This document shows, in pieces, positions 3,724-48,091 of a stretch of DNA of 64,000 nt. Made by a program: the position numbers and the translations under genes. The notes beneath the pieces are model-generated. The model was not told the origin of the DNA, searched no databases, and was given only the letters and a program-made list of their open reading frames with translations. The DNA is from a virus, in the IMG/VR virus record IMGVR_UViG_3300013104_000004, positions 1 to 64,000 of that record, one strand, 5' to 3'. Each line of letters opens with the position of its first letter. Position 1 is the first letter of the stretch.

Positions 3724-4059
3724 CTATCTCAGATTTGCAACGTCAGGGTCCGAGTAGCCATCAGCCAGTTCCTCACCCGAGTCGATCGACTCCAACCCGG
3801 CCGCCCGGTCCTTAGAGCGCTGCCTGACGGACTTGAACCAGTCGTCGAGGTGCTCCGTCGAGTGCCAGTACTCCTGCGGCGGGACCATGTCCTCGCTCAG
3901 CTCCAAGAACCCCAGCACCGTCAGGGCGGCGTTGACCGCCGCGAGCAGCTCCCAGCTCGCCTGGGTTACATCTCCACCGGGGAAGAAGGAACCGAGGCCT
4001 CCTGCACTGCGCGCTGCCCCGACGGCCCGGAGGAAACCGACGGAGCGCCCGAGTTTCCC
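3724..4059 (-). CDS. Tail assembly chaperone, -1 frameshift extension (gpGT-like C-terminal part)
   Basis: The frame of ORF 3724..3918 stays open upstream to a G GGA AAC slippery site (plus strand gtttccc, 4053-4059) inside the chaperone gene. Confidence 0.75.
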   Translation of the reverse strand, partial: GKLGRSVGFLRAVGAARSAGGLGSFFPGGDVTQASWELLAAVNAALTVLGFLELSEDMVPPQEYWHSTEHLDDWFKSVRQRSKDRAAGLESIDSGEELADGYSDPDVANLR

Positions 4060-4805
4060 GCTTCGTCATCCGACATCTGGCGGTTCAGGACCTCCACGGC
4101 CTCGTTGAGCACCGCGTCCGGCAACGACGTGACATCCGCGCGGGAGTCCAGGAGGCGCACCGAGTGGTCGCAGCCCTTGTGCACCCACCCGTCGCCGTCC
4201 GAGACCGCCGAGCAGTCGCGAAGCGCGAAGAACAGCTCCGTCTGGCGCATGCCCTCACGGAACGCGTGCACGCCCGTCATGTTGCGGAACTGCTCGACGT
4301 AGAGCTTCTCCAGCTCCTCGCGGGTCGAGCCCTGCAGCTCGTCGTTGTACTCGATGGCAAGGCGTGCCCGGATCTTGTGCACCGCGGCGTCGAACTCCCG
4401 CGAGACCTCCTCCAGGGCGGCCGCCTGCGCGTCCGTCGCACCGTCCAGGTCGGCGCGGTCCAGCGCCTCCAGGCGCTCCTGCCAGGCCTTGTCGGTGCGG
4501 ACCTCGTTGCGCGCCAGGCGCAGGTGCTCCATCTCGCGGTCGTACATCAGGACCTGGATGATCTCCGCGTCCGACGTCGACCGCACCACCTCGTCGAGGG
4601 CGATCTTCTGGTCCGGGTCGCGGTCGAACGCGATGACCTGACGAGCACGGTGCGCACGCGCATCGCGCATGGCCTCCTCGTGCTCGAAGGAGTTCAGCTT
4701 GCTGACCCACACCGTGATCGGGCCACCCTTCGGATCCTCGATCTCAATGACCTCGCCGAGGTCGAAGAGCTCCTGGATCCGGCGGAACTTGGTCTTGGCT
4801 CCCAC
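3966..4805 (-). CDS. Tail assembly chaperone (gpG-like)
   Basis: 279 aa, between major tail and tape measure genes, with a slippery heptamer near its 3' end. Confidence 0.8.
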   Translation of the reverse strand: MGAKTKFRRIQELFDLGEVIEIEDPKGGPITVWVSKLNSFEHEEAMRDARAHRARQVIAFDRDPDQKIALDEVVRSTSDAEIIQVLMYDREMEHLRLARNEVRTDKAWQERLEALDRADLDGATDAQAAALEEVSREFDAAVHKIRARLAIEYNDELQGSTREELEKLYVEQFRNMTGVHAFREGMRQTELFFALRDCSAVSDGDGWVHKGCDHSVRLLDSRADVTSLPDAVLNEAVEVLNRQMSDDEAGNSGAPSVSSGPSGQRAVQEASVPSSPVEM

Positions 4806-33587: not shown

Positions 33588-33606
33588 CACCTTGAGAACT
33601 CAACAG
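33588..33606 (+). promoter_or_regulatory. rrn-leader-type boxA antitermination signal
   Basis: CACCTTGAGAACTCAACAG matches, from memory, the actinobacterial rRNA leader boxA region (TTGAGAACTCAA(C/T)AG); GC hairpins lie upstream (33503-33570). Confidence 0.65.
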
Positions 33607-33632
33607 TGACGACGGAATCGACTGATCCCCCG

Positions 33633-35576: not shown

Positions 35577-36713
35577 TCAGCGCGCCATGCGTGCCCGGAG
35601 TGCGGCCAGCGTGTCGCGCGCGGCGTCCGCCTTGACGCGCTCCGGCGCCTTGCGGGTGGCGGCGCGACGGGCGCCGGTGCCGTTGCTCGCAGCCAGCACG
35701 TAGGACCCGCCGACAGCGGGACCCGCCAGGCGCTCCGGGCTGACAGTGTGCCCGTGCGAGAGAGACACGCGCCGGAGTGCGTCCCGCTGTCCGTCGGCGC
35801 CGATGCCCTGCCCGGAGCCGAGGCCGCGCGTCATGGCGGTAGCGACAGCGGACCGGTACAGCCCTGAGGTGAGGTGCGGGACCGGGCGCGCGGCAGGCGG
35901 GCAGGGGACCGGACCCGCCAGCACGTGCACGGGCTGATATCCGAGCGCGTACGGGTACCCGTTGCTGTCAGTGAGCTCGGGGGACCGGCGCCCGATGGCA
36001 CGCACCCCCGGGCGCTGTCCGTCCCGCACGGACTGGCGCCACGTGCGGACCATGGCGCGCGCCGGGCGCTCCGCCAGTCCGTCGCGGTCCCGCTGTCCGC
36101 CAGCGCTGACGACGACAGCGCCGCGCCGGATGACGCGGCCTGCGTAGGTGTGCGCCACGGTCCGCACGTCGGCGGGCGCGTCGTCAGCGGCCAGCACGTC
36201 CGCCACGGGCGCGCCGACAGCGGCCAGCGCGACGGCCAGCGCGTCCCGCACGTCCGCCACGGTCCGCGTGTCGTCGGCGCCAGTGAGCGCCCGTGCGAGG
36301 CGCGTCGCGACGACGCGGCCGGACGCGCTCACCACGTCAACGATCGGCGCATGCGTGCCACGGGCAGGTACGTCGTCGCACGTGCGGCCGTCGCTGTCGC
36401 GCGACCCCAGAACGGCCGACAGCACGAGTGCCGTGGTGATATCCGGGCACGCGGCACGGGCGGCGCGGATACCGTCGGCGACAGCGTCCGCCAGCGTGTG
36501 CGGCGCCGCCACGGGCGCGGCGCCCGCCATGGCGTGCAACGTCTCCAACGGGACCGCGATCTCACGCGTACCCGTCGCGTCCCGCATGGCGCCGGTCACG
36601 GCTCCGTGTGCGTCGGGCTCCGCCCGGATGCCAGTCACGGCCGTCAGCGCGGATTCAAGCGCGGCGCCCGTCAGCGTCGCGATGTGGTCCCAATCAATCG
36701 TCAGCGTGTGCAT
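35577..36713 (-). CDS. 378-aa Ala/Arg/Val-rich hypothetical protein with atypical oligonucleotide usage
   Basis: GGGAG RBS, ATG at 36713, own terminator. No Phe and no TCGA site. Confidence 0.65.
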   Translation of the reverse strand: MHTLTIDWDHIATLTGAALESALTAVTGIRAEPDAHGAVTGAMRDATGTREIAVPLETLHAMAGAAPVAAPHTLADAVADGIRAARAACPDITTALVLSAVLGSRDSDGRTCDDVPARGTHAPIVDVVSASGRVVATRLARALTGADDTRTVADVRDALAVALAAVGAPVADVLAADDAPADVRTVAHTYAGRVIRRGAVVVSAGGQRDRDGLAERPARAMVRTWRQSVRDGQRPGVRAIGRRSPELTDSNGYPYALGYQPVHVLAGPVPCPPAARPVPHLTSGLYRSAVATAMTRGLGSGQGIGADGQRDALRRVSLSHGHTVSPERLAGPAVGGSYVLAASNGTGARRAATRKAPERVKADAARDTLAALRARMAR

Positions 36714-36973: not shown

Positions 36974-37064
36974 CGAAACGGTGCGCCGATTGCTTAGAGA
37001 TGAGGCACGGTGCACGGCGACGACGACAACGTCGAAACGGTGCGCGAGTTGCTTAGAGATGAGG
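36974..37064 (+). repeat. 32-bp direct repeat CGAAACGGTGCGCnnnTTGCTTAGAGATGAGG (two copies; degenerate copies at 36761 and 37510)
   Basis: 36974-37005 and 37033-37064 share 29 of 32 nt. Confidence 0.8.
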
Positions 37065-37101
37065 GCGCCGCACGGTGCGGCGCACGACGAGCGGAGACGA
37101 C

Positions 37102-37382
37102 ATGGACTTCGAGACCTACGAGCGGCGCCTGCGTGCGCTGCACGTCCAGGTGGGACGCGGCTTTCTGACGCCGGATGAGGCGTTCATGGAGGCACACGAG
37201 ATCGCCGCCGAGTTCTGGATCCAGGCGATGACGCCGGTGGAGGTGCCCGCATGACGTGGCACCCGCTTGACCTGCCAGCTCACCTCCAGCTCCCCGCCGA
37301 GGCGCCTCCCGCGCCGCCGGTGACGTTCCACGACGACCCGTGGCAGCACGACCCCGACCGCGCAACGCGGCGCGGGTTCTGA
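37102..37382 (+). other. Two small coupled ORFs (37102-37254, 37251-37382)
   Basis: GGAG RBS before MDFETYERRL...; ATGA overlap to MTWHPLDLP... Confidence 0.55.
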
Positions 37383-37473
37383 GGCCGCTGCTGACTAGAC
37401 GCTCTGCATGCACACCGACCAGCTCGGGGCGCGTGTTGTCCGCCTAGTCGGACTGAATGACGCCTGCTAGAGC

Positions 37474-37939
37474 TCCCGCTCACAGCTTCCGGCGCCTTTC
37501 TCACCGGAAGTTGCTTGTAGGTGAGAGGTGGCGCCGCGAAACGTGGGGAAGCGATCCGCGGCGCCATCTTCCAGTCTTCCCGAAAGAGTCATTCTTCCGG
37601 GCGCAATCCGTGAAAATCGACCCCACCGAAAGGAGGTAGGAAATGCCCTTCTTCCAGCACGCCGCCATATTACCGTGGCCGCTGCACACCTGATCGACAG
37701 ATCCCGCAGCCCCGCGGGGGTGAGTGACAGGAATGTGCCCAGCCGGCCAAAACCAGGCACGACCGAGAAAGCGGCATCCGACTCAGCCGCACGGACTCGC
37801 CGGAGTTCCGGCCCATTGGGGAAGGGCGAATCGAACCGGCAACAGTTGACCAGCGCTGTAGACCACCCGTGCATCCCGGCACGGGCCCAAGGCTGGCACC
37901 GGGTAAGCCCCCTGCCGGTCAAGCACCTACAGAGCGGGA
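37474..37939 (+). ncRNA. Candidate large multi-domain structured RNA (about 465 nt)
   Basis: 5' TCCCGCTC and TGTAGGTG pair with the contiguous 3' CACCTACA-GAGCGGGA; many internal helices; A-rich linkers; no credible ORF. Confidence 0.6.
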
Positions 37940-38133
37940 CGACGTGAGGCCTGCGAGCACCAGTAGCGCTGCTGGTGCTGAGCCTGGCTGACCTCCTCGT
38001 CCGACGCAGAGACCTAGCGAACCAGCACGGCGCTGACGTTCTGCATCCACCCCGACCTTCCGAGCTCGGGGTGGGTGTTGTTCGGCAGCCCCTGTCCGAA
38101 CCACCCGAACGACACCTAGAGAGTGAGCACCCC

Positions 38134-40332
38134 ATGCGTGACGACAAGCGCAAGGCCAAGCAGGAGCAGACCCGCCGGAACTTCGAGCGGACGATGAAGA
38201 CGAAGCCCTACGTGGGCGCCGCCTCCACCGTCGAGATCTGACCATGGTCACCCTCGACAAGTCGCCCGCCATCCTCCAGGTCCGGGTCGACGTGCCCTTC
38301 ACCTACACGCTCACCGCCGGTCACTCGATCGTCGAGGCGTTCCTGGACCTGGACGAGTCCGACCAGCGTGCGGTCCTGCGCGGCGCGGCCATCGCCGTGC
38401 TCACCGGGCCGGAGGTTGACCTTCCGGGCCTGCTGGCGAAGATCAACGAGCAGGCCACGTGGGCCCGACTCGGGATCGGCGTGCCGCGGTGAGCGTCAGC
38501 CTGGCCAAGCGCCCGGTCATCCAGGGCCTGCTCTGGGTGTGCGACGACTGCCTCTTCGCCCGTGAGGGTGACGGGACCGAGGACCCGCACTGCGAGCCCT
38601 GGAACCGTGAGCCCGACACGGACGTGACGCTCGGCGTCGCCTACGGCCATGACGGCTGTGAGCACTCGCCCTACGCGGACGACTACGACGAGCACTCCGA
38701 GTCCTGCGAGATGCACACCTTCTCGTCCCGGTCCTGCGACGGCTGCGGCTGCCACCTGGCCGGCACGCGTCACGCCTACACCTGGTGGGCGTGATGACCG
38801 GGAAGCACGTAGACACGGACCGGCCGCTGATCGTCGTGGACGTCGCCTACCGGGGGTACGTCCTGGAGTGGGCCTGGGGGACGCGCAAGCGCCCCCCCCA
38901 CTGGGCGCGGTGTGCCTGTGGCTGACTTCGAGCGCCTGGCTGCCGGTCTGTCGGACTACGACCGCACCACCTTGGAGTACCTGTTCTTCTCCGGCATCCG
39001 CGGTCCTGTTCTGGAACGCGTCGCCGCATCCCTTCGACCTTCGAGAAACGGAACCCCAGCATGAGTCACGCCTACCCGGACGGCTTCATCTACACCGGCA
39101 CGGTGAGCCACGGAACCCTGCGCTCCGAGGACCTGATCGCCACCTTCCTGCCGATCCTGTGCAACCTCGACCGGAACACGGCCAATCAGGTCGGTGACGG
39201 CGAGCACGACGAGGCGATCATCGAGACCGTGCCGTACCCGCTGCCGGACGAGCTGCTGGAGCCTGCCTCCGAACTGGCCCTGTGGCTCATCGAGAAGCTG
39301 GACGCTGCGGCGCCTGAGGGCTTCTACTTCGGCGCCCACGAGGGCGACGGCTCCGACTTCGGCTTCTGGCCCATCGAGGACGACTGATGGGCGCCCGCGT
39401 CGTCACGAACCACCACATCCGGCGCCTGCGCTCCTGGCAGGACCTTCCGGCCGACGCCCGCCCGGACTTCGACTACGTCGAGGAGGACGAGCGCTGGTCC
39501 GACCGCTTCGTCGAGTACCGCGGCGCCTGGCACGACGTCATGGACGCCCAGGTGCTCGGTGACGGCCGACCTTTCGGATGGCCGATCGCTCCCGACTCGC
39601 CCCTCCAGGGATGGAACGCCGCTGCCAGCGACTCCGCCTGGACCGCGACCATCTTCCGCTGGCCCACCGAGGTGGAGATCTTCCGCCACGACCTGTACTC
39701 CGACCGCGACGGCTACATCATCGTCGGTCGCTACATCTCCGACTGAGAGAGGCACGCATGATGCTCACCTTGCGCATCCCGCCCGGCGCGACGCACGCCT
39801 GCTACGGCAAGCTCGTCGACGCCGCCGGCCGCCCGCACGATCTGGACAAGGTCATGGAGTGGGGCACCGCGATCCGCGTGCGGATCGAGGGGGACCAGAC
39901 CTTCGTGGACACCGGCGTCCGGGACCGGACCGTGCCCGACCTGCTGGCCTTCTCGTACCCCGACGGCTCGCATCTTCCAGGGACCGACACCGACCTCCAG
40001 GACCAGGCCCAGGCCTACGGGTGGGACGGTCTACTGACCGGCTTCACCGGGCAGTACGGCTACGGGGGGCCGTGCATGCACGCTTCGGAGTTCGTCGGCG
40101 GTGGGCTGGCCGACCACATCCTGACCACACCCGGCCTGTATGCCGTGACCGAGATCAGCGAGGACGACGGCGAGCCGGAGTCCTGGGCGATCGCCTACAA
40201 GGCCGCCGAGTGACCCGCCGCTACCTCGCCATCCGCGCCTGCGTGCGCTTCCTGGTGGGCTTGACCTTCGCGGTCGCCTTCCTGTTCGTGACCGGCCTGC
40301 CGGTCTTCCTGCTCGGAGCCAACCCCTCCTGA
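38134..40332 (+). other. Early cluster of small, mostly acidic genes (38134-38241, 38244-38492, 38489-38794, 39061-39387, 39387-39746, 39758-40213, 40210-40332 and smaller ORFs)
   Basis: Coupled ORFs with phage codon usage; several are Asp/Glu/aromatic-rich (e.g. YFGAHEGDGSDFGFW). Confidence 0.65.
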
Positions 40333-40457
40333 GCGATTCCGCCACCGTGAGCACCTGCCCACAGATCCACTGCACCCCGGTCCGCCCTTCGGCGCCGGGG
40401 TTGCTTGTTGATGAGGGCCGCGTTCGCGGCACACGACGTCCCTTGAAAGGGGAGCAC

Positions 40458-41054
40458 GTGAGCACCACGACGACTGACACGACGCCTCGCGTCTGGATCG
40501 GATCCCTGGCCGCCTACAACGCTGGCGACCTGCTGGGCGACTGGTTCGAGGCGATCGACTGCCCGACCGACGCTACCGAGTGGGTCACGCAGATGATCGC
40601 CCGCGGGCAGATCCCCGCCGGCGACGACTGGTACCTGACCGCCCTCATTCAGCGCCACGAGGAGATCTGGGTCTTCGACCACGACAACTTCCTCGGCCTG
40701 CTGAAGGGCGAGTGCTCGCCTTCCGAGGCCCAGCGCCTGGCCCAGCTGCTCGACGACGTGCAGGACGACCAGCGCGCCGCCTTCGGCGCCTGGGTCGGTG
40801 AGGGCAACGAGCCCGACACCTTCGAGGACCACTTCCATGGCGTCCACGAGTCCTTCCGGGACTACCTCAACGACTTCGTGCCCGACGTGCCGGACGAGCG
40901 TCCGCCGTCGTGGGACCACGAGGCCTGCGCCCGCCACGACGCCGCCGAGTTCTTCCGGCGGTACTTCGACTGGGCGGCCTACGTGCGCGAGATGGAGCAC
41001 GAGTACACCGTCATCCGCCTGGGAACCGACCAGTACGCGGTGTTCTCCGCATGA
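40458..41054 (+). CDS. ardA: Antirestriction protein ArdA (DNA mimic)
   Basis: RVWIGSLAAYNAGDLLGDW, EEIWVFDHD and YFDWAAYVRE motifs; highly acidic. Confidence 0.85.
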   Translation: MSTTTTDTTPRVWIGSLAAYNAGDLLGDWFEAIDCPTDATEWVTQMIARGQIPAGDDWYLTALIQRHEEIWVFDHDNFLGLLKGECSPSEAQRLAQLLDDVQDDQRAAFGAWVGEGNEPDTFEDHFHGVHESFRDYLNDFVPDVPDERPPSWDHEACARHDAAEFFRRYFDWAAYVREMEHEYTVIRLGTDQYAVFSA

Positions 41055-43919: not shown

Positions 43920-46032
43920 ATGATCGCCCCACACGAGGCGGCAGCGACCTTCAATGCCGCGACCGCCGCCGTCCGTGCGACGGCGTGGAGTCTCGAACAG
44001 GAGGCCGCGCTCGCCGCCGTGCGACTCCTCGCCGCACACGCCCTCGACGCGGTGCCCGACGCAACGCACCTGCTCATCGAGTCCTCCGACCAGGGCAACT
44101 ACATGATGTGCACGGCCGGCTCGGTCGAGCGCGACGGCGTGACCGTCGCCAGTGGGACCGACTGGGACGACAGGTGCGAGCTACACGACCTCGACGCCGC
44201 CGCTTCCTGGCTCACATGGGGTGCCGCGGCCTGGGAGCAGTACGCCGACCCTTTCCACCCGTACACGAACATGCGCGGCGGCTACGTCGCGCTCGACCTG
44301 CGGCGCATTGCCGCTGACCAGGAGGCCTGATGCACACCGACGAGGACAGCATTCTGGCGATCGTCGACCAGCAGGGCTGGAACGACGCGACCCTCCTGGC
44401 CCTCATGGGCGAGTTCATCTACCGCCACCCGCGGCGCACGCGCCGCTTCCTGGAGTACGTCCGCCGAGTCCAGCGCGAGGAGAACGCCTGATGCCCACCC
44501 TGAACGACCTGACCGTCACCTTCGACGAACGTGACGACCTGACCGTCGGCACCTTCGTCGGCTACAACGGCCGCTGCGAGGTCCGCGTCGTCACGTCCAG
44601 CGCGACCGTCTACTTCACCGAGGACCACTTCCTGGCCCTCTTCAACGAGCTCGGCAAGCACCTGTTCCGCTCCTTCGAGATCGAGGCCTTCGACGACGCC
44701 CACGGGCACAACGTCAGCCTGAGGACGACGCCGCTTCTCGACGAGGACGTGCACGTCACGCTCAACGGCGAGGTGCTCTTCAAGGGCGAGGTGACCCGGT
44801 GACGATCCAGTCCGACCGCGTCATCAGCGCCGCCGTCGACCTGCTGGGCCTGCCCGGTGACCGACCGTTCCAGAGCCCGGAGTACCAGCGGGCCATCGTC
44901 GAGATGACCACGAGCCTGGTCTCGGACGCACCCTTCCACGACGTCGTCGAAGACGGCGACGAGCGCAAGGCGATCGTCGCCACGCTCCTCGGCGTGCCGC
45001 CCGAGCCCGACCTTCGCAGCCCGCTCGACGGGTTGCTGTAGCGCCCCCCGACCAGACAACCTCCCCCTTCCCCAGGAGCCAGGAATGCCCAGCACGAACG
45101 AGAACCGCGACAAGGCGCCGAGCGACGACGCCGTCCGCCTTGTCGGTGCGGTCGCCGCGAGCGACGCCATCGCACACATGACCGCCATCTCGACCTTCAA
45201 CCTGGCCACCGCGGTCAGAGCGTTGCAGTCGGGCATGGGCGGCACGCTCACGTTCCACCTGCCCAGCCAGCGCGGCAAGGCCGCGCAGGTCGTCTACGAG
45301 GGCTTGGCGCCGACGCGCTGAGCACCTGCCCAGAAAGGAGTGCGAGATGGTCTGCCCCGTCTGCGGTGGCGCGCCCGTCGAGTCGGTGGTCTACGACTAC
45401 CTGACGTGCACGAAGTGTCGGGAGCTCCTGAGTCCCGGCGAGCTGGTCCGGCGCAAGACGCGCCGGACCCGCGTCCGCTACGCCCGGGCCAACGGGCACA
45501 CCAAGCACTACGGCACGAAGAAGGAGACGTCGTGATCGAGATCCTCATCGAGCGTGACCCCGACAGCTTGACCGACGTCACGCTCTTCATCGACGGCGAG
45601 GAGGTCCCCGCCCGGGAGATCGACTACCGGCACATCGACCCCGGCGTCGGCTACCTGTTGTCGGAGTGGCGGGAGGACCGCGCCGACATCAAGGCGGCTG
45701 GCCACAGTCGCGCGTTCACCGCGGCGGCACTCGCAGCGCACGACGCGGCCGAGCGGTCCCCGTACATCGAGGATGACCTGGCCGAGCCGCTGTACGAGAA
45801 GTGCGCCGAGTGCCACCTCTTCGTCGAGCCGAACAGCTCGCACGACAGCGCGGACCCCGAGTACGCAGCCACGCTCGCCGAGTACGTGCACCTGCATCGC
45901 GGCGACAAGGCGGACGACGAGCTCGACGCGAGCCACGAGGCCCGCCCTTCCGGCGAGATCGCCAACCTCACCCAGTGGCGCATGTACGGCCCCGAGGCCA
46001 TGCGCGCCCGCTTCAACCCACGAGAGGAGTGA
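43920..46032 (+). other. Cluster of small hypothetical genes (43920-44330, 44330-44491, 44491-44802, 44799-45041, 45085-45321, 45347-45535, 45532-46032)
   Basis: Coupled ORFs with RBSs; 45347-45535 is a CxxC...CxxC zinc ribbon. Confidence 0.65.
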
Positions 46033-46036
46033 CCGC

Positions 46037-46861
46037 ATGGCCAACGTCGCATCTGGCGTCGCGCTGAGCTTCGGGCTCATCACCGCGTCCGTGTCCATCC
46101 AGGCAGCCCTGGAGGCCAAGGCCAAGACGGGCAACGTCATGGTCTGCGACACCGGACACCCGCCGCACCAGATCCGCGCACCCCGCGTGTGTGACGAGTG
46201 CAACGGCGAGGTGCCCTACCAGCAGCTGAAGAAGGCACGGCCCGTCGACGGCGGGCTCGTGGTCCTGGAACGGGAGGAGATCGAGCAGGCGTCCGTCGAC
46301 GCCACGAAGTTCAAGAAGAAGGCCGGTGTCACCGCGCACCCGGTCGAGCAGGTCCAGGTCCACACCGCGACCGGCGAGAAGATGTACTACCTCACGCCCG
46401 ACAAGGGCCACGAGGACGGGTACACGACGCTCCTGGCCCTGGTGCTGAACCACCCGGAGCTCGCGTTCGTCACGCAGTGGACGCCGCGCACCGCGCTGGG
46501 CCAGTTCCAGCTGATCGTCCACGACGGCGTGCTCGCCTTCCAGGAGCGCACCGAGTCAGCCGGTTCCGTCCGGCCGGCGCCCGTGCTCGACCTCACGGTG
46601 AACGACGCCCTGGTCGGGCTCGCTGAGCAGGTGCTGGCGATGCCCGCGTCTGTCAGCGACTACGACCCGGCGACGTACCGGGACGGCTACGAGGACCGCC
46701 TGGCCGCGATCATCGCGGGCAAGGAGGTCGTGGCTGCCACGACGACGAGCGCCACACCCATCGCGCCCGCGTCCGACCTGATGGAGAAGCTCCGCGCCCA
46801 GGTCGCCGCGGCGGCCCCGGCGCCGAAGCGGCGGGCCACGAGGAAGAAGGTGGCCGCATGA
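46037..46861 (+). CDS. ku: Ku DNA end-binding protein
   Basis: LSFGLITASVSI N-terminus, C...GEVPYQQLKKA, YYLTP, YDPATYRDGYEDRL, DLMEKLRA. Confidence 0.85.
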   Translation: MANVASGVALSFGLITASVSIQAALEAKAKTGNVMVCDTGHPPHQIRAPRVCDECNGEVPYQQLKKARPVDGGLVVLEREEIEQASVDATKFKKKAGVTAHPVEQVQVHTATGEKMYYLTPDKGHEDGYTTLLALVLNHPELAFVTQWTPRTALGQFQLIVHDGVLAFQERTESAGSVRPAPVLDLTVNDALVGLAEQVLAMPASVSDYDPATYRDGYEDRLAAIIAGKEVVAATTTSATPIAPASDLMEKLRAQVAAAAPAPKRRATRKKVAA

Positions 46862-47121
46862 GCATGACGACCGACGCGTACGCCTGCCGGTACGTGGTCG
46901 ACGGCACCGACACCGACGGCACGGTGTGGAACCGATGCCTCGTCCATGACGAGCTGGCGCCCTCGAACGAGGCGCCATGCTCCGACGCCGGCGCCGACGA
47001 TGCGGTGCGCAGGTGCCCTGAGTGCGACGCCGACATGCACCTCGTGCCCTACAACTTCAACGGCTTCGAGCACACCGACTGGGGCCTCGCCTGCACCGAC
47101 TGCGACTACCACGACCTCTAG
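46858..47121 (+). CDS. Small Cys-rich protein
   Basis: CPEC...CTDC; lies between ku and the ligase. Confidence 0.6.
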   Translation: MSMTTDAYACRYVVDGTDTDGTVWNRCLVHDELAPSNEAPCSDAGADDAVRRCPECDADMHLVPYNFNGFEHTDWGLACTDCDYHDL

Positions 47122-47191
47122 GAGGACCCGATCTACCGTCTGATCCCGCGCGAGATCCGTGCGGACCTGCACGCCTACGAACAGGAGAGAC

Positions 47192-48091
47192 GTGATCCCC
47201 ATCCAACCGATGCTCGCCTCGCCCAGCAGCGGAGCGAGCAACCGAAGACCGCTCGACCTCGGCCACCTCGCCACCGCCGGTGGCTGGGTCGCAGAGGAGA
47301 AGCTGGACGGCATCCGAGCCATCGTCGAGTCCGACGGTGGCTCGACTCGTATCTGGAACCGGAGCGGCGTCGACATCAGCGACCGCTTCCCTGAGATCGC
47401 CCGGCAGCGGCTGCTCCCCGTCGTGCTCGACGGGGAGATCGTCGCGACGGACGGCCTCTTCCAGACCGTCGCCACGCGCGACAAGCAGACGAGCGGGTAC
47501 GGGGCGGCCGCGCGCCGCAACCCGTGCCGCTTCGTCGCGTTCGACCTGCTCGCCTCGCACGACGAGCCCCTGACGCACCTGCCCTACAAGATGCGCCGCC
47601 AGCTGCTGCGCGGCGTGTGCGGCAACCGGCGCACGGTGCGCCCGGTGCGGCAGTCGGGGAACATCCTCGCCCTCTGGGACGAGGTGCTGACTGCCGGCGG
47701 CGAGGGCGTCATCTGCAAGCAGCTGAACTCGGTCTACCTGCCCGGCGCCCGCGCCAGCTCGTGGGTCAAGTTCAAGGCCGTGCAGCGCCTGACGGCAGTC
47801 GCCGTCGGGTACGAGCACGGGCTCAACCGCGACTTCGGAGCGATCCGGCTCGCGCTCATCGGCAACGACGGTCCGATCCCCATCGGGAAGGTCGGCACCG
47901 GCTGGAAGGAGAAGCACGGCAAGCAGATGCAGGCGCGCCTCGACGCCCAGGAGATCTTCCTGGTGGAGATCGAGGCCCTGAACCGCACTGCCGACAACGC
48001 GCTGCGCTTCCCGGTCTTCCGGGGCGAGCGCACAGACCTGGACCTGACCGCGGCCAGCGCCGACCAGCTCGCGCTGCTGCCCATCTACTGA
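47192..48091 (+). CDS. ATP-dependent DNA ligase (minimal LigD/LigC-like)
   Basis: PMLA, EEKLDGIR, LDGEIV, AFDLL, EGVICK, WVKFK, GKVGTG, LRFPVF. Confidence 0.9.
   Translation: MIPIQPMLASPSSGASNRRPLDLGHLATAGGWVAEEKLDGIRAIVESDGGSTRIWNRSGVDISDRFPEIARQRLLPVVLDGEIVATDGLFQTVATRDKQTSGYGAAARRNPCRFVAFDLLASHDEPLTHLPYKMRRQLLRGVCGNRRTVRPVRQSGNILALWDEVLTAGGEGVICKQLNSVYLPGARASSWVKFKAVQRLTAVAVGYEHGLNRDFGAIRLALIGNDGPIPIGKVGTGWKEKHGKQMQARLDAQEIFLVEIEALNRTADNALRFPVFRGERTDLDLTAASADQLALLPIY

Follow-up and report, generated by a model that had tools for sequence, protein, structure and literature searches.

The DNA analysed here, called the window throughout, is the first 64 kb (64,000 nucleotides) of IMG/VR record IMGVR_UViG_3300013104_000004, a complete 83,483-bp virus genome with direct terminal repeats and about 70% G+C, which comes from a rhizosphere metagenome. 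Our subject is a gene-free gap of 751 nt, 37383–38133, that lies on the + strand of a rightward operon; features are on this strand unless stated otherwise. Genes were called by the G+C content of third codon positions (GC3), with no gene finder. Leftward genes run up to the one at 35577–36713 and are followed by a divergent region and then by the start of the rightward operon. The first small coding-like open reading frame (ORF) of this operon is ORF59 (37075–37254), and the second is ORF43 (37251–37382), which has 43 codons and whose stop forms the 5′ edge of the gap. On the 3′ side, ORF35 (38134–38241; GC3 0.94) begins with the ATG at 38134. ORF82, a gene for a CxxC zinc-finger protein (38489–38794) and further small genes follow, and ardA lies downstream in the same operon (ArdA, Pfam 1.5e-17). 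A first-pass annotation had placed a large, closed RNA at the head of the early operon. The element does lie early in a rightward operon that reaches ardA, but ORF59 and ORF43 (37075–37382) precede it, and in the sister phage described below the gap sits behind at least six small genes.

Coding potential and predicted folding of the gap

The gap is non-coding. The sequence letters and coordinates given for it in the first-pass annotation are correct, and so is the statement that some 750 nt hold no credible ORF, as the GC3 frame plot has no coding frame over 37400–37860. The ORFs inside the gap have a GC3 of 0.54–0.69 (on the minus strand, 0.65 for the ORF of 230 aa, 0.54 for that of 127 aa, and 0.69 for that of 95 aa; on the plus strand, 0.65 for one of 139 aa) versus 0.86–0.94 in the flanking genes. 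None of the six gap ORFs tested against Pfam was matched, nor was the single one tested against PHROGs. At the protein level, there is no similarity to the sister gap beyond the signal of a conserved nucleotide block, which is present on both strands. ARAGORN reports no transfer RNA (tRNA) or transfer-messenger RNA. The earlier remark was that the element could not be matched to group I/II introns, RNase P or transfer-messenger RNA; in an Infernal search of the whole 64-kb window against Rfam 15, none of 4227 families reached its gathering score. At E ≤ 10, the segment 37000–38500 gave five matches of 15–20 bits, against gathering scores of 36–75, and these were to eukaryotic microRNA, small nucleolar RNA or long non-coding RNA families and to CcsR1. 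The sister gap gave no match at E ≤ 1. The idea that the element is a ribozyme is thus not upheld by Rfam in either phage.

The gap also folds better than shuffled sequence. For the whole region the z-score is −5.76, with none of 20 dinucleotide shuffles as good. In a second run (z −3.86, 14 shuffles), it was the lowest of 15 segments of 726 nt taken across the 64 kb, the other 14 ranging from +0.30 to −3.14. The two parts of the gap give −3.73 (37383–37677) and −2.55 (37678–38085). Segments of 200 nt give −1.6 to −3.0 over 37300–37799, +0.25 at 37700–37899, and −0.8 to −1.8 over 37800–38199. The gap has more predicted structure than the rest of the genome, with a signal that is moderate and not outstanding.

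The linkers of the predicted structure are A-rich, as described earlier: unpaired + strand bases are 37% A versus 15% A genome-wide. Unpaired sense-strand bases are A-rich and G-poor in both phages, with 37% A and 17% G in the window and 28% A and 13% G in the sister, and the AT skew is +0.35 to +0.39 at 37600–37899. A supposed preference of G-U pairs for the plus strand does not hold, there being 13 G-U among 179 pairs on the + strand versus 23 among 198 on the − strand. A near-identical strain from another soil metagenome differs at five positions in the 304 nt covered by its two contigs. All five are unpaired in the minimum free energy (MFE) structure, in which 39% of the covered positions are unpaired; the probability of this by chance is ~0.009, at a depth of only 2, and we take it as a hint of structure. 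Three DNA sequencing runs were drawn on in all; apart from the run with this strain, one contains short identical pieces and one may be the source.

A conserved 3′ module in a sister phage

The sole true relative is locus L010 of an 80,879-bp IMG/VR record (G001; 97% complete), which was reached via the zinc-finger neighbour. We refer to it as the sister phage. G001 is syntenic with the source genome over most of its length, with more than 60 GC3-called ORFs matching by tblastn at 30–77% identity. It contains a gene-free gap of 890 nt (L010 3521–4410), and the structure in this gap is biased to the sense strand, with z −7.84 on that strand and only −2.47 on the antisense strand.

The two gaps can be aligned only towards their 3′ sides, between window 37885–38045 and L010 3935–4092, over ~90–150 nt; as a feature, the block is taken to be 37896–38045 (L010 3950–4092). 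Identity within the block is 59% versus 39–47% in shuffled controls, and the neighbouring genes are at 60–71% nucleotide identity. The conserved core, 37920–38006, contains the invariant islands CAAGCACC, GCGGGACGACGTGAG, GCCTGGC, and TCGTCC-R-ACGC. Since these islands survive in a block that is at 59% overall, with the neighbouring genes at 60–71%, function is indicated rather than decay. In both phages, the letters of the block can also be read as an in-frame R-D-D-V-R-P-X12-stop. We rejected this coding reading on account of the low GC3 in that frame, the lack of a start codon for it in the window, and the 12 residues, which are unrelated between the phages.

The predicted fold of the block in L010 is a closed domain made up of a perfect 17-bp outer stem (probability 1.00), a GGACGAC/GTCGTCC helix and an apical hairpin. 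Covariation among homologues had been suggested as a check, and it is found in part. When the 48 pairs of the L010 fold are mapped onto the window, 36 are standard pairs there and eight of them have changed on both sides. Slid controls give 25–43% paired cells and 0–2 pairs changed on both sides. The apical hairpin (37956–37979; probability 0.97) differs in sequence from that of the sister, and its stem is kept. Its ten pairs comprise three that are invariant, six that are kept through change, and one that is broken, and in each phage, only 6 of 1000 shuffles are as stable. The basal stem, GGACGA/TCGTCC, is invariant and so carries no covariation information. RNAalifold proposed the outer stem in the window as well, with five compensatory pairs. 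We rejected it there, as 5 of its 10 variable pairs are broken, its arms pair no better than shuffled arms, and forcing it costs 6.9 kcal/mol relative to the MFE. Because the apical hairpin is supported and the outer stem is unsupported in the window, the secure conserved unit is one of ~90 nt (37920–38006).

This result bears directly on the architecture first proposed for the element, a 465-nt core closed by two adjacent long-range helices. Both closing helices are present in the MFE structure, with mean pair probabilities of 0.84 (37474–81/37932–39) and 0.97 (37516–23/37924–31), and there is a further outer helix, 37384–93/38023–31, with a probability of 0.85. The internal helices fared variously. 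Those at 37483–92/37504–13 (0.99), which form a 10-bp hairpin spanning 37483–37513, and the 14-bp 37525–38/37557–70 (0.97), spanning 37525–37570, are in the MFE structure, as are GCGGC/GCCGC (0.98), CCCGTGC/GCACGGG (0.99), and GCCGG/CCGGC, the last as a local hairpin (0.74). TTGACC/GGTCAA, GTGCC/GGCAC, and GCTGC/GCAGC are replaced by other pairings.

A single closed multi-domain RNA of ~465 nt, in the style of GOLLD or ROOL or acting as a ribozyme, with its ends clamped by the two long-range helices and working as one folded particle, would account for these probabilities and for whole-gap z-scores that beat those of the halves. The sister also has a long-range helix, 3663–83/4263–86, of 21 bp with a 3-nt bulge, three G-U pairs and a probability of 0.92–0.98. 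As judged by reading the sequences, an AGGTG/CACCT pairing is possible in both phages, with three flanking pairs that change yet stay paired. However, shuffled sequences match the gaps both in the number of long-range pairs and in the length of stacks. In the MFE structure of the real gap, 25 pairs span more than 300 nt and the longest such stack is 8, whereas 70 dinucleotide shuffles average 33.8 such pairs and a stack of 7.8, with 70% and 50% of them reaching the observed values. For the sister gap, the corresponding values are 43 pairs and a stack of 11 versus shuffle means of 47.6 and 8.8, reached by 57% and 22% of 60 shuffles. Since the closing helices are equalled by shuffles, closure does not argue for a closed RNA; at such a G+C content, an MFE structure is expected to be closed over long distances by chance. 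Nor is the core conserved, for its 5′ 410 nt are at 44% identity to the sister, which lies within the 39–47% of shuffled controls and is random. The sister has no counterpart of TCCCGCTC/GAGCGGGA, and the conserved GGGACGAC pairs there locally with GTCGTCC and not with a 5′ strand. The partners in the closing helices do not occupy homologous positions in the two phages, so that the conserved, co-varying long-range architecture of a large ornate RNA is not seen. When the 3′ strand is paired with the upstream region, the duplex energy is equalled by 29% and 67% of shuffled targets, and Rfam has no match to any large RNA or ribozyme. We therefore consider a single closed RNA quite unlikely.

Other members of the family were sought by several routes. 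Blastn of the gap ("distant", 37300–38250) against 50,697 phage records gave no match. The zinc-finger neighbour is represented by 13 proteins in a large protein database, and alignment of the zinc-finger proteins led to 7 metagenome loci and 14 viral loci; among these, L010 alone is similar to the gap. An exact 15-mer led to 41 viral loci, with the sister contig the only one truly similar, and a pattern for the 3′ half of the gap and a search anchored on ORF119 each found the sister contig only. A 20-base pattern gave eight hits in 185,579 species genomes, all without the downstream block and, as judged from the printed flanks, coding-looking. We also built a covariance model of the 3′ module, R1, trained on two sequences (the window and L010). 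Among 30 collected sources, R1 found only these two. Alignment of the terminase led to 80 related viral loci, and on 41 of the 80 records, comprising 35 contigs over ~25 kb and six of 14.8–25 kb, the best R1 score was 18.8 bits (E 0.05), with no further member. One of five near-complete relatives (G006) has the zinc-finger profile; its gaps fold well, and R1 has no match there. In this more distant 84-kb relative (L177; G006:C1:9000–27000, reverse strand, ~4050–4480), several well-folding gene-free gaps are seen near the zinc-finger gene. One of these "gaps" holds, by eye, an apparent leftward gene of the Lsr2 type that the GC3 filter missed.

The phage has no relatives among cultured phages. 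Tblastn with the zinc-finger protein found none, and the best terminase hit was at 37%, to a mangrove-soil phage. No relatives of the upstream 378-aa gene were found, and a resemblance of ORF59 to the first small L010 ORF, seen by eye, gave no BLASTP alignment. Literature searches yielded a single relevant paper, on phages L5 and D29, to which we return below, and by sequence the element has no counterpart in a cultured phage. The element forms a new family of two members, of a kind already known, that of structured non-coding RNAs (ncRNAs) or leaders close to where phage early operons begin.

Motif copies, a mini-ORF, and terminator-like hairpins

A short motif recurs in the early regions of both phages, as TTGCTT-AGAGA-TGAGGG in G000, the source genome, and as C-TAGA-NN-GTGAGG-GCAC in G001. 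It clusters on the + strand within the first 2.5 kb of the early regions, which contain three of the six hits in G000 and six of the eight in G001. The copies sit 5 to ~80 nt upstream of start codons, a spacing that suits promoters more than ribosome sites. Among three matches, where 0.08 were expected, are full copies at 36989 and 37048. A degenerate copy, TTGCTT-N5-TGAG, lies inside the gap at 37509–37527 (family D1; 82% identity to the reference copy at 37047) and coincides with the 5′ strand, TGTAGGTG, of one of the closing helices discussed above. A degenerate copy can also be read in L010 at 3647–66, and the 5′ strand of the long-range helix in the sister likewise begins at the GGTGAG of its motif copy. 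Thus, in both phages, the gap copy supplies the 5′ strand of a predicted long-range helix. The copy TAGAGAGTGAGC (38117–38128) is 5 nt before the ATG of ORF35. We regard the family, from its placement, as a candidate early promoter or operator common to both phages.

Several features accompany these copies. The family is seen on the + strand only (36989–37064, 38117–38128, and 40401–40440; L010 118–2522), often followed by a G+C-rich hairpin and CACGACG. The 14-bp hairpin at 37525–37570 is directly 3′ of the gap copy and, as read from the sequence, parallels the hairpins behind the copies at 37064 and 40417. At 40366–40458, a hairpin, TTGCTTGTTGATGAGGG, a second hairpin, and CACGACG are found directly upstream of what is likely the true start of ardA, the GTG at 40459 behind AAAGGGGA. 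This arrangement matches the unit at the head of the operon.

Within the gap, the stretch 37629–37693 consists of AAAGGAGGT followed by a 16-codon ORF (37643–37693) with adjacent ATA and TTA codons. The ATATTA at 37667–37672 is without parallel in the 83,483-bp genome, which has no other stretch of at least six consecutive A/T, and ATA is used twice and TTA once in 21,552 codons. The mini-ORF has a perfect Shine–Dalgarno sequence 5 nt before its ATG and a GC3 of 0.82, with all codons except ATA, TTA, and the stop ending in G or C. The same letters can be read in another way, as a candidate promoter ATGCCC-N17-CATATT (37643–37671). On the + strand of G001, over its whole 80.9 kb, just two hexamers agree with TATAAT at five of six positions, the CATAAT at 3867 and 3901. 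Both are in the gap, inside a 34-nt tandem duplication, and the one at 3867 has ATGCCT 17 nt upstream (L010 3844–3872), which is the same bipartite word as in the window. These matches suggest a conserved internal promoter in the gap, with statistical support that is only suggestive. For ATGCC at the −35 place, the probability by chance is roughly 0.02–0.05, and about one such match is expected within ±60 nt. A sigma-70 scan lists no promoter-like site.

A pair of repeats, T1 and T2, brackets most of the gap. T1 (37404–37445), just 3′ of ORF43, is a degenerate copy of T2 (38043–38078), the two forming a direct repeat (D5) with 86% identity over 22 nt that flanks ~640 nt, and T1 aligns with both T2 and the L010 hairpin. 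With its 13-bp stem and the tail TGTTGTTCGG, T2 is a terminator-like hairpin, and the gene that comes next begins ~55 nt downstream. Its folding energy is −29.9 kcal/mol (z −4.40; none of 200 shuffles as good). In position and in its loop, CCGAGCTCG, it is homologous to the hairpin at L010 4102–4156 (z −3.05), and both hairpins are 3′ of the conserved module. U-poor terminators occur in actinobacteria.

Taken together, these elements invite the view that the gap is a hub of regulatory DNA, made up of motif copies, a host-type promoter, ATGCCC-N17-CATATT, and T1 and T2, with the hairpins serving only as terminators or stabilisers of messenger RNA ends. The + strand clustering of the motif before start codons in both early regions, the copy inside the gap of each phage, the bracketing by the T1/T2 repeats, and the concentration in the gaps of the only A/T hexamer of one genome and the only two near-consensus + strand −10 hexamers of the other, one with ATGCC 17 nt upstream, are all consistent with it. 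Yet 750–890 nt is long for a promoter/terminator hub, and the conserved loop bases, the co-varying apical hairpin, the G-U pairs, and the sense asymmetry of L010 point to selection at the level of RNA. The empty sigma-70 scan and the modest odds for the −35 word also speak against it. Moreover, it overlaps the reading that we prefer, that of a structured early RNA, since transcription from a promoter within the gap would merely turn its 3′ part, 400 nt here and 280 nt in G001, into a small RNA of its own that carries the conserved module. A hub of DNA sites as the whole explanation is, in our estimate, unlikely.

The mini-ORF raises another prospect, that of a leader peptide sensing rare tRNAs. 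Ribosomes would load at AAAGGAGGT, pause at ATA-TTA, refold the downstream RNA and so set the read-through of T2. In Streptomyces, TTA is read by bldA. The perfect Shine–Dalgarno sequence, the GC3 of the mini-ORF, and the uniqueness of ATATTA and rarity of its codons would suit such a peptide. However, the Shine–Dalgarno sequence is partly paired in the MFE structure (GGAGG/CTTCC, probability 0.74), T2 lies ~350 nt past the mini-ORF stop, which is far for classical attenuation, and the same letters fit the promoter reading. The sister gap has no comparable Shine–Dalgarno sequence with an ORF; its ATG at the ATGCC word lacks one and opens a different frame of 67 codons. We regard a tRNA-sensing leader peptide as highly improbable.

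The direct repeats also bring to mind an element acting as DNA or in decay, such as a replication origin, the scar of a mobile cassette between T1 and T2, or a dead gene. The ~640 nt between the repeats, the shift of the gap relative to the zinc-finger gene between the phages, the tandem duplication in L010, and a G+C content of 59–63%, below that of the flanks, would agree with this. But the window has no iterons, the two gaps retain no similarity to each other at the protein level, and the conserved islands argue for function. The G-U pairs and strand asymmetry in L010 favour RNA, and an origin, scar, or dead gene is very unlikely.

Neither boxA nor boxB was found in the gap. An exact rrn-type boxA-like word, CTTGAGAACTCAACAGTG, is seen at 33590–33607 (word at 33592) on the + strand, between leftward genes, and a structured stretch follows it. 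As this is the only exact one in the window and is 3.8 kb away, Nus-type antitermination is not invoked for the gap. Other proteins encoded by the phage are Ku, an ATP-dependent ligase, MoxR/VWA, RuvB-like, and integrase proteins. The Ku-like and ATP-dependent DNA ligase genes adjoin one another at 45773–48091 (Pfam Ku 1.9e-9; DNA_ligase_A_M 1.7e-30), a pairing also present in some mycobacteriophages.

A proposed modular early RNA and its relation to known systems

We propose that the gap encodes a modular, structured, untranslated early leader or ncRNA, built as a chain of modules, with a partial end at T2 and a 3′ module under selection, and we put the probability of this at about 0.5. Between the two forms offered at first, an undescribed large ncRNA or a leader for the early operon, the leader or cis-element form fits best, and the one large closed RNA does not.

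In this proposal, the gap would be transcribed rightward with the early operon and possibly also from its own promoter inside the gap. The order of the modules would be the weak hairpin T1, the two hairpins that each stand behind a motif copy, a lineage-specific middle, the conserved 3′ module with its basal stem, internal-loop bases and variable apical hairpin, and finally the strong hairpin T2. We infer that the RNA ends in part at T2, so that a stable, structured early RNA would accumulate, while a fraction of polymerases would read through into ORF35, the zinc-finger gene, and ardA. The probable role of the 3′ module is to bind a protein or to govern what becomes of the transcript at T2.

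Several observations weigh against this proposal. Coding segments of 200 nt elsewhere in the window reach z-scores of −3.8 and −4.5, better than the gap segments, and the minus strand of the region also folds well (z −4.73). Of the 23 variable pairs in the whole module, 12 are retained, a number only marginally higher than expected by chance. In the window, the arms of the outer stem pair at −19.7 kcal/mol, whereas shuffled arms average −20.1 and do as well in 51% of cases. T1 is no more stable than shuffled sequence (z −0.07), being equalled by 81 of 200 shuffles. The tail of T2 is a poor U-tract, with five T in the first seven bases and five in ten and no unbroken run of U, and T2 was not listed by a consensus terminator scan. 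The order of genes differs as well, the gap in G001 being behind the zinc-finger gene and two more genes and that in the window being before the zinc-finger gene. Finally, the family has two members only, and the covariation is thin.

The closest likeness is to the Pleft RNA of the mycobacteriophages L5, D29, and StarStuff. This RNA is described as highly abundant, stable, ~500 nt long, and without an ORF of more than ~30 codons; ~90% of transcripts stop at its end, clones of it are toxic, and its function is given as unknown (PMC5712189). The gap resembles it in being assigned to an actinobacterial phage, in lying at the start of an early lytic unit, and in offering ~0.5 kb without a credible ORF. 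By analogy, it may also end before the first early genes, at the place where most L5 transcripts stop and where the hairpin T2 is predicted here; a partial ending at T2 would mirror L5 and its ~500-nt RNA. The L5 Pleft stretch folds with z −4.06, and the window gap with −3.9 to −5.8. Unlike the Pleft RNA, the gap is preceded by two small ORFs, and its promoters are guesses from motifs. No homology is found, since R1 run on L5 50500–52297 with filters off gives at best 7.8 bits (E 0.18).

Cis-acting RNAs are well known at the starts of lambdoid early operons, in the leader of the λ N gene, with nutL and an RNase III hairpin, and in the put RNAs of HK022. The latter are ~70 nt long, consist of two stem-loops directly behind the promoter, and make RNA polymerase resistant to terminators in cis. 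The gap would similarly give a structured RNA close to the beginning of an early operon with terminators in it, and this could act in cis on read-through. The 17-bp stem of L010 is, like that of the λ leader, the kind of substrate that RNase III cuts. The gap differs from the λ leader in the lack of boxA and boxB, and from the put RNAs in being ten times longer and not homologous.

The comparison with ornate RNAs, to which the first-pass annotation had turned, is more distant. GOLLD, ROOL, OLE, HEARO, and raiA, which we take to be among the Rfam families searched, share with the gap a length of several hundred nucleotides, non-coding nature, carriage by phages, multiple hairpins, and A-rich unpaired bases. 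In contrast to them, the gap matches none of the 4227 families, its body is not conserved even in the sister, and its closure is not above chance. Its family has two members, whereas theirs have hundreds to thousands. A caution follows for other genomes, as in DNA of 65–70% G+C, long-range "closing" helices of the MFE structure are expected by chance and are no evidence of a large closed RNA.

It is tempting to go further and to suppose that the 3′ module and T2 form a cis RNA switch that gates anti-defence early genes, namely ORF35, the zinc-finger gene, and ardA, by reading a host factor at the internal loop or ribosome pausing at ATATTA. Such a switch is decidedly unlikely on what we have. 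If it exists in the pausing version, it would tie the expression of early phage genes to the host's supply of rare tRNAs.

If our proposal of a modular early RNA is correct, an uncultured lineage of high-GC soil phages would have its own version of the unexplained abundant early RNA of L5 and D29.

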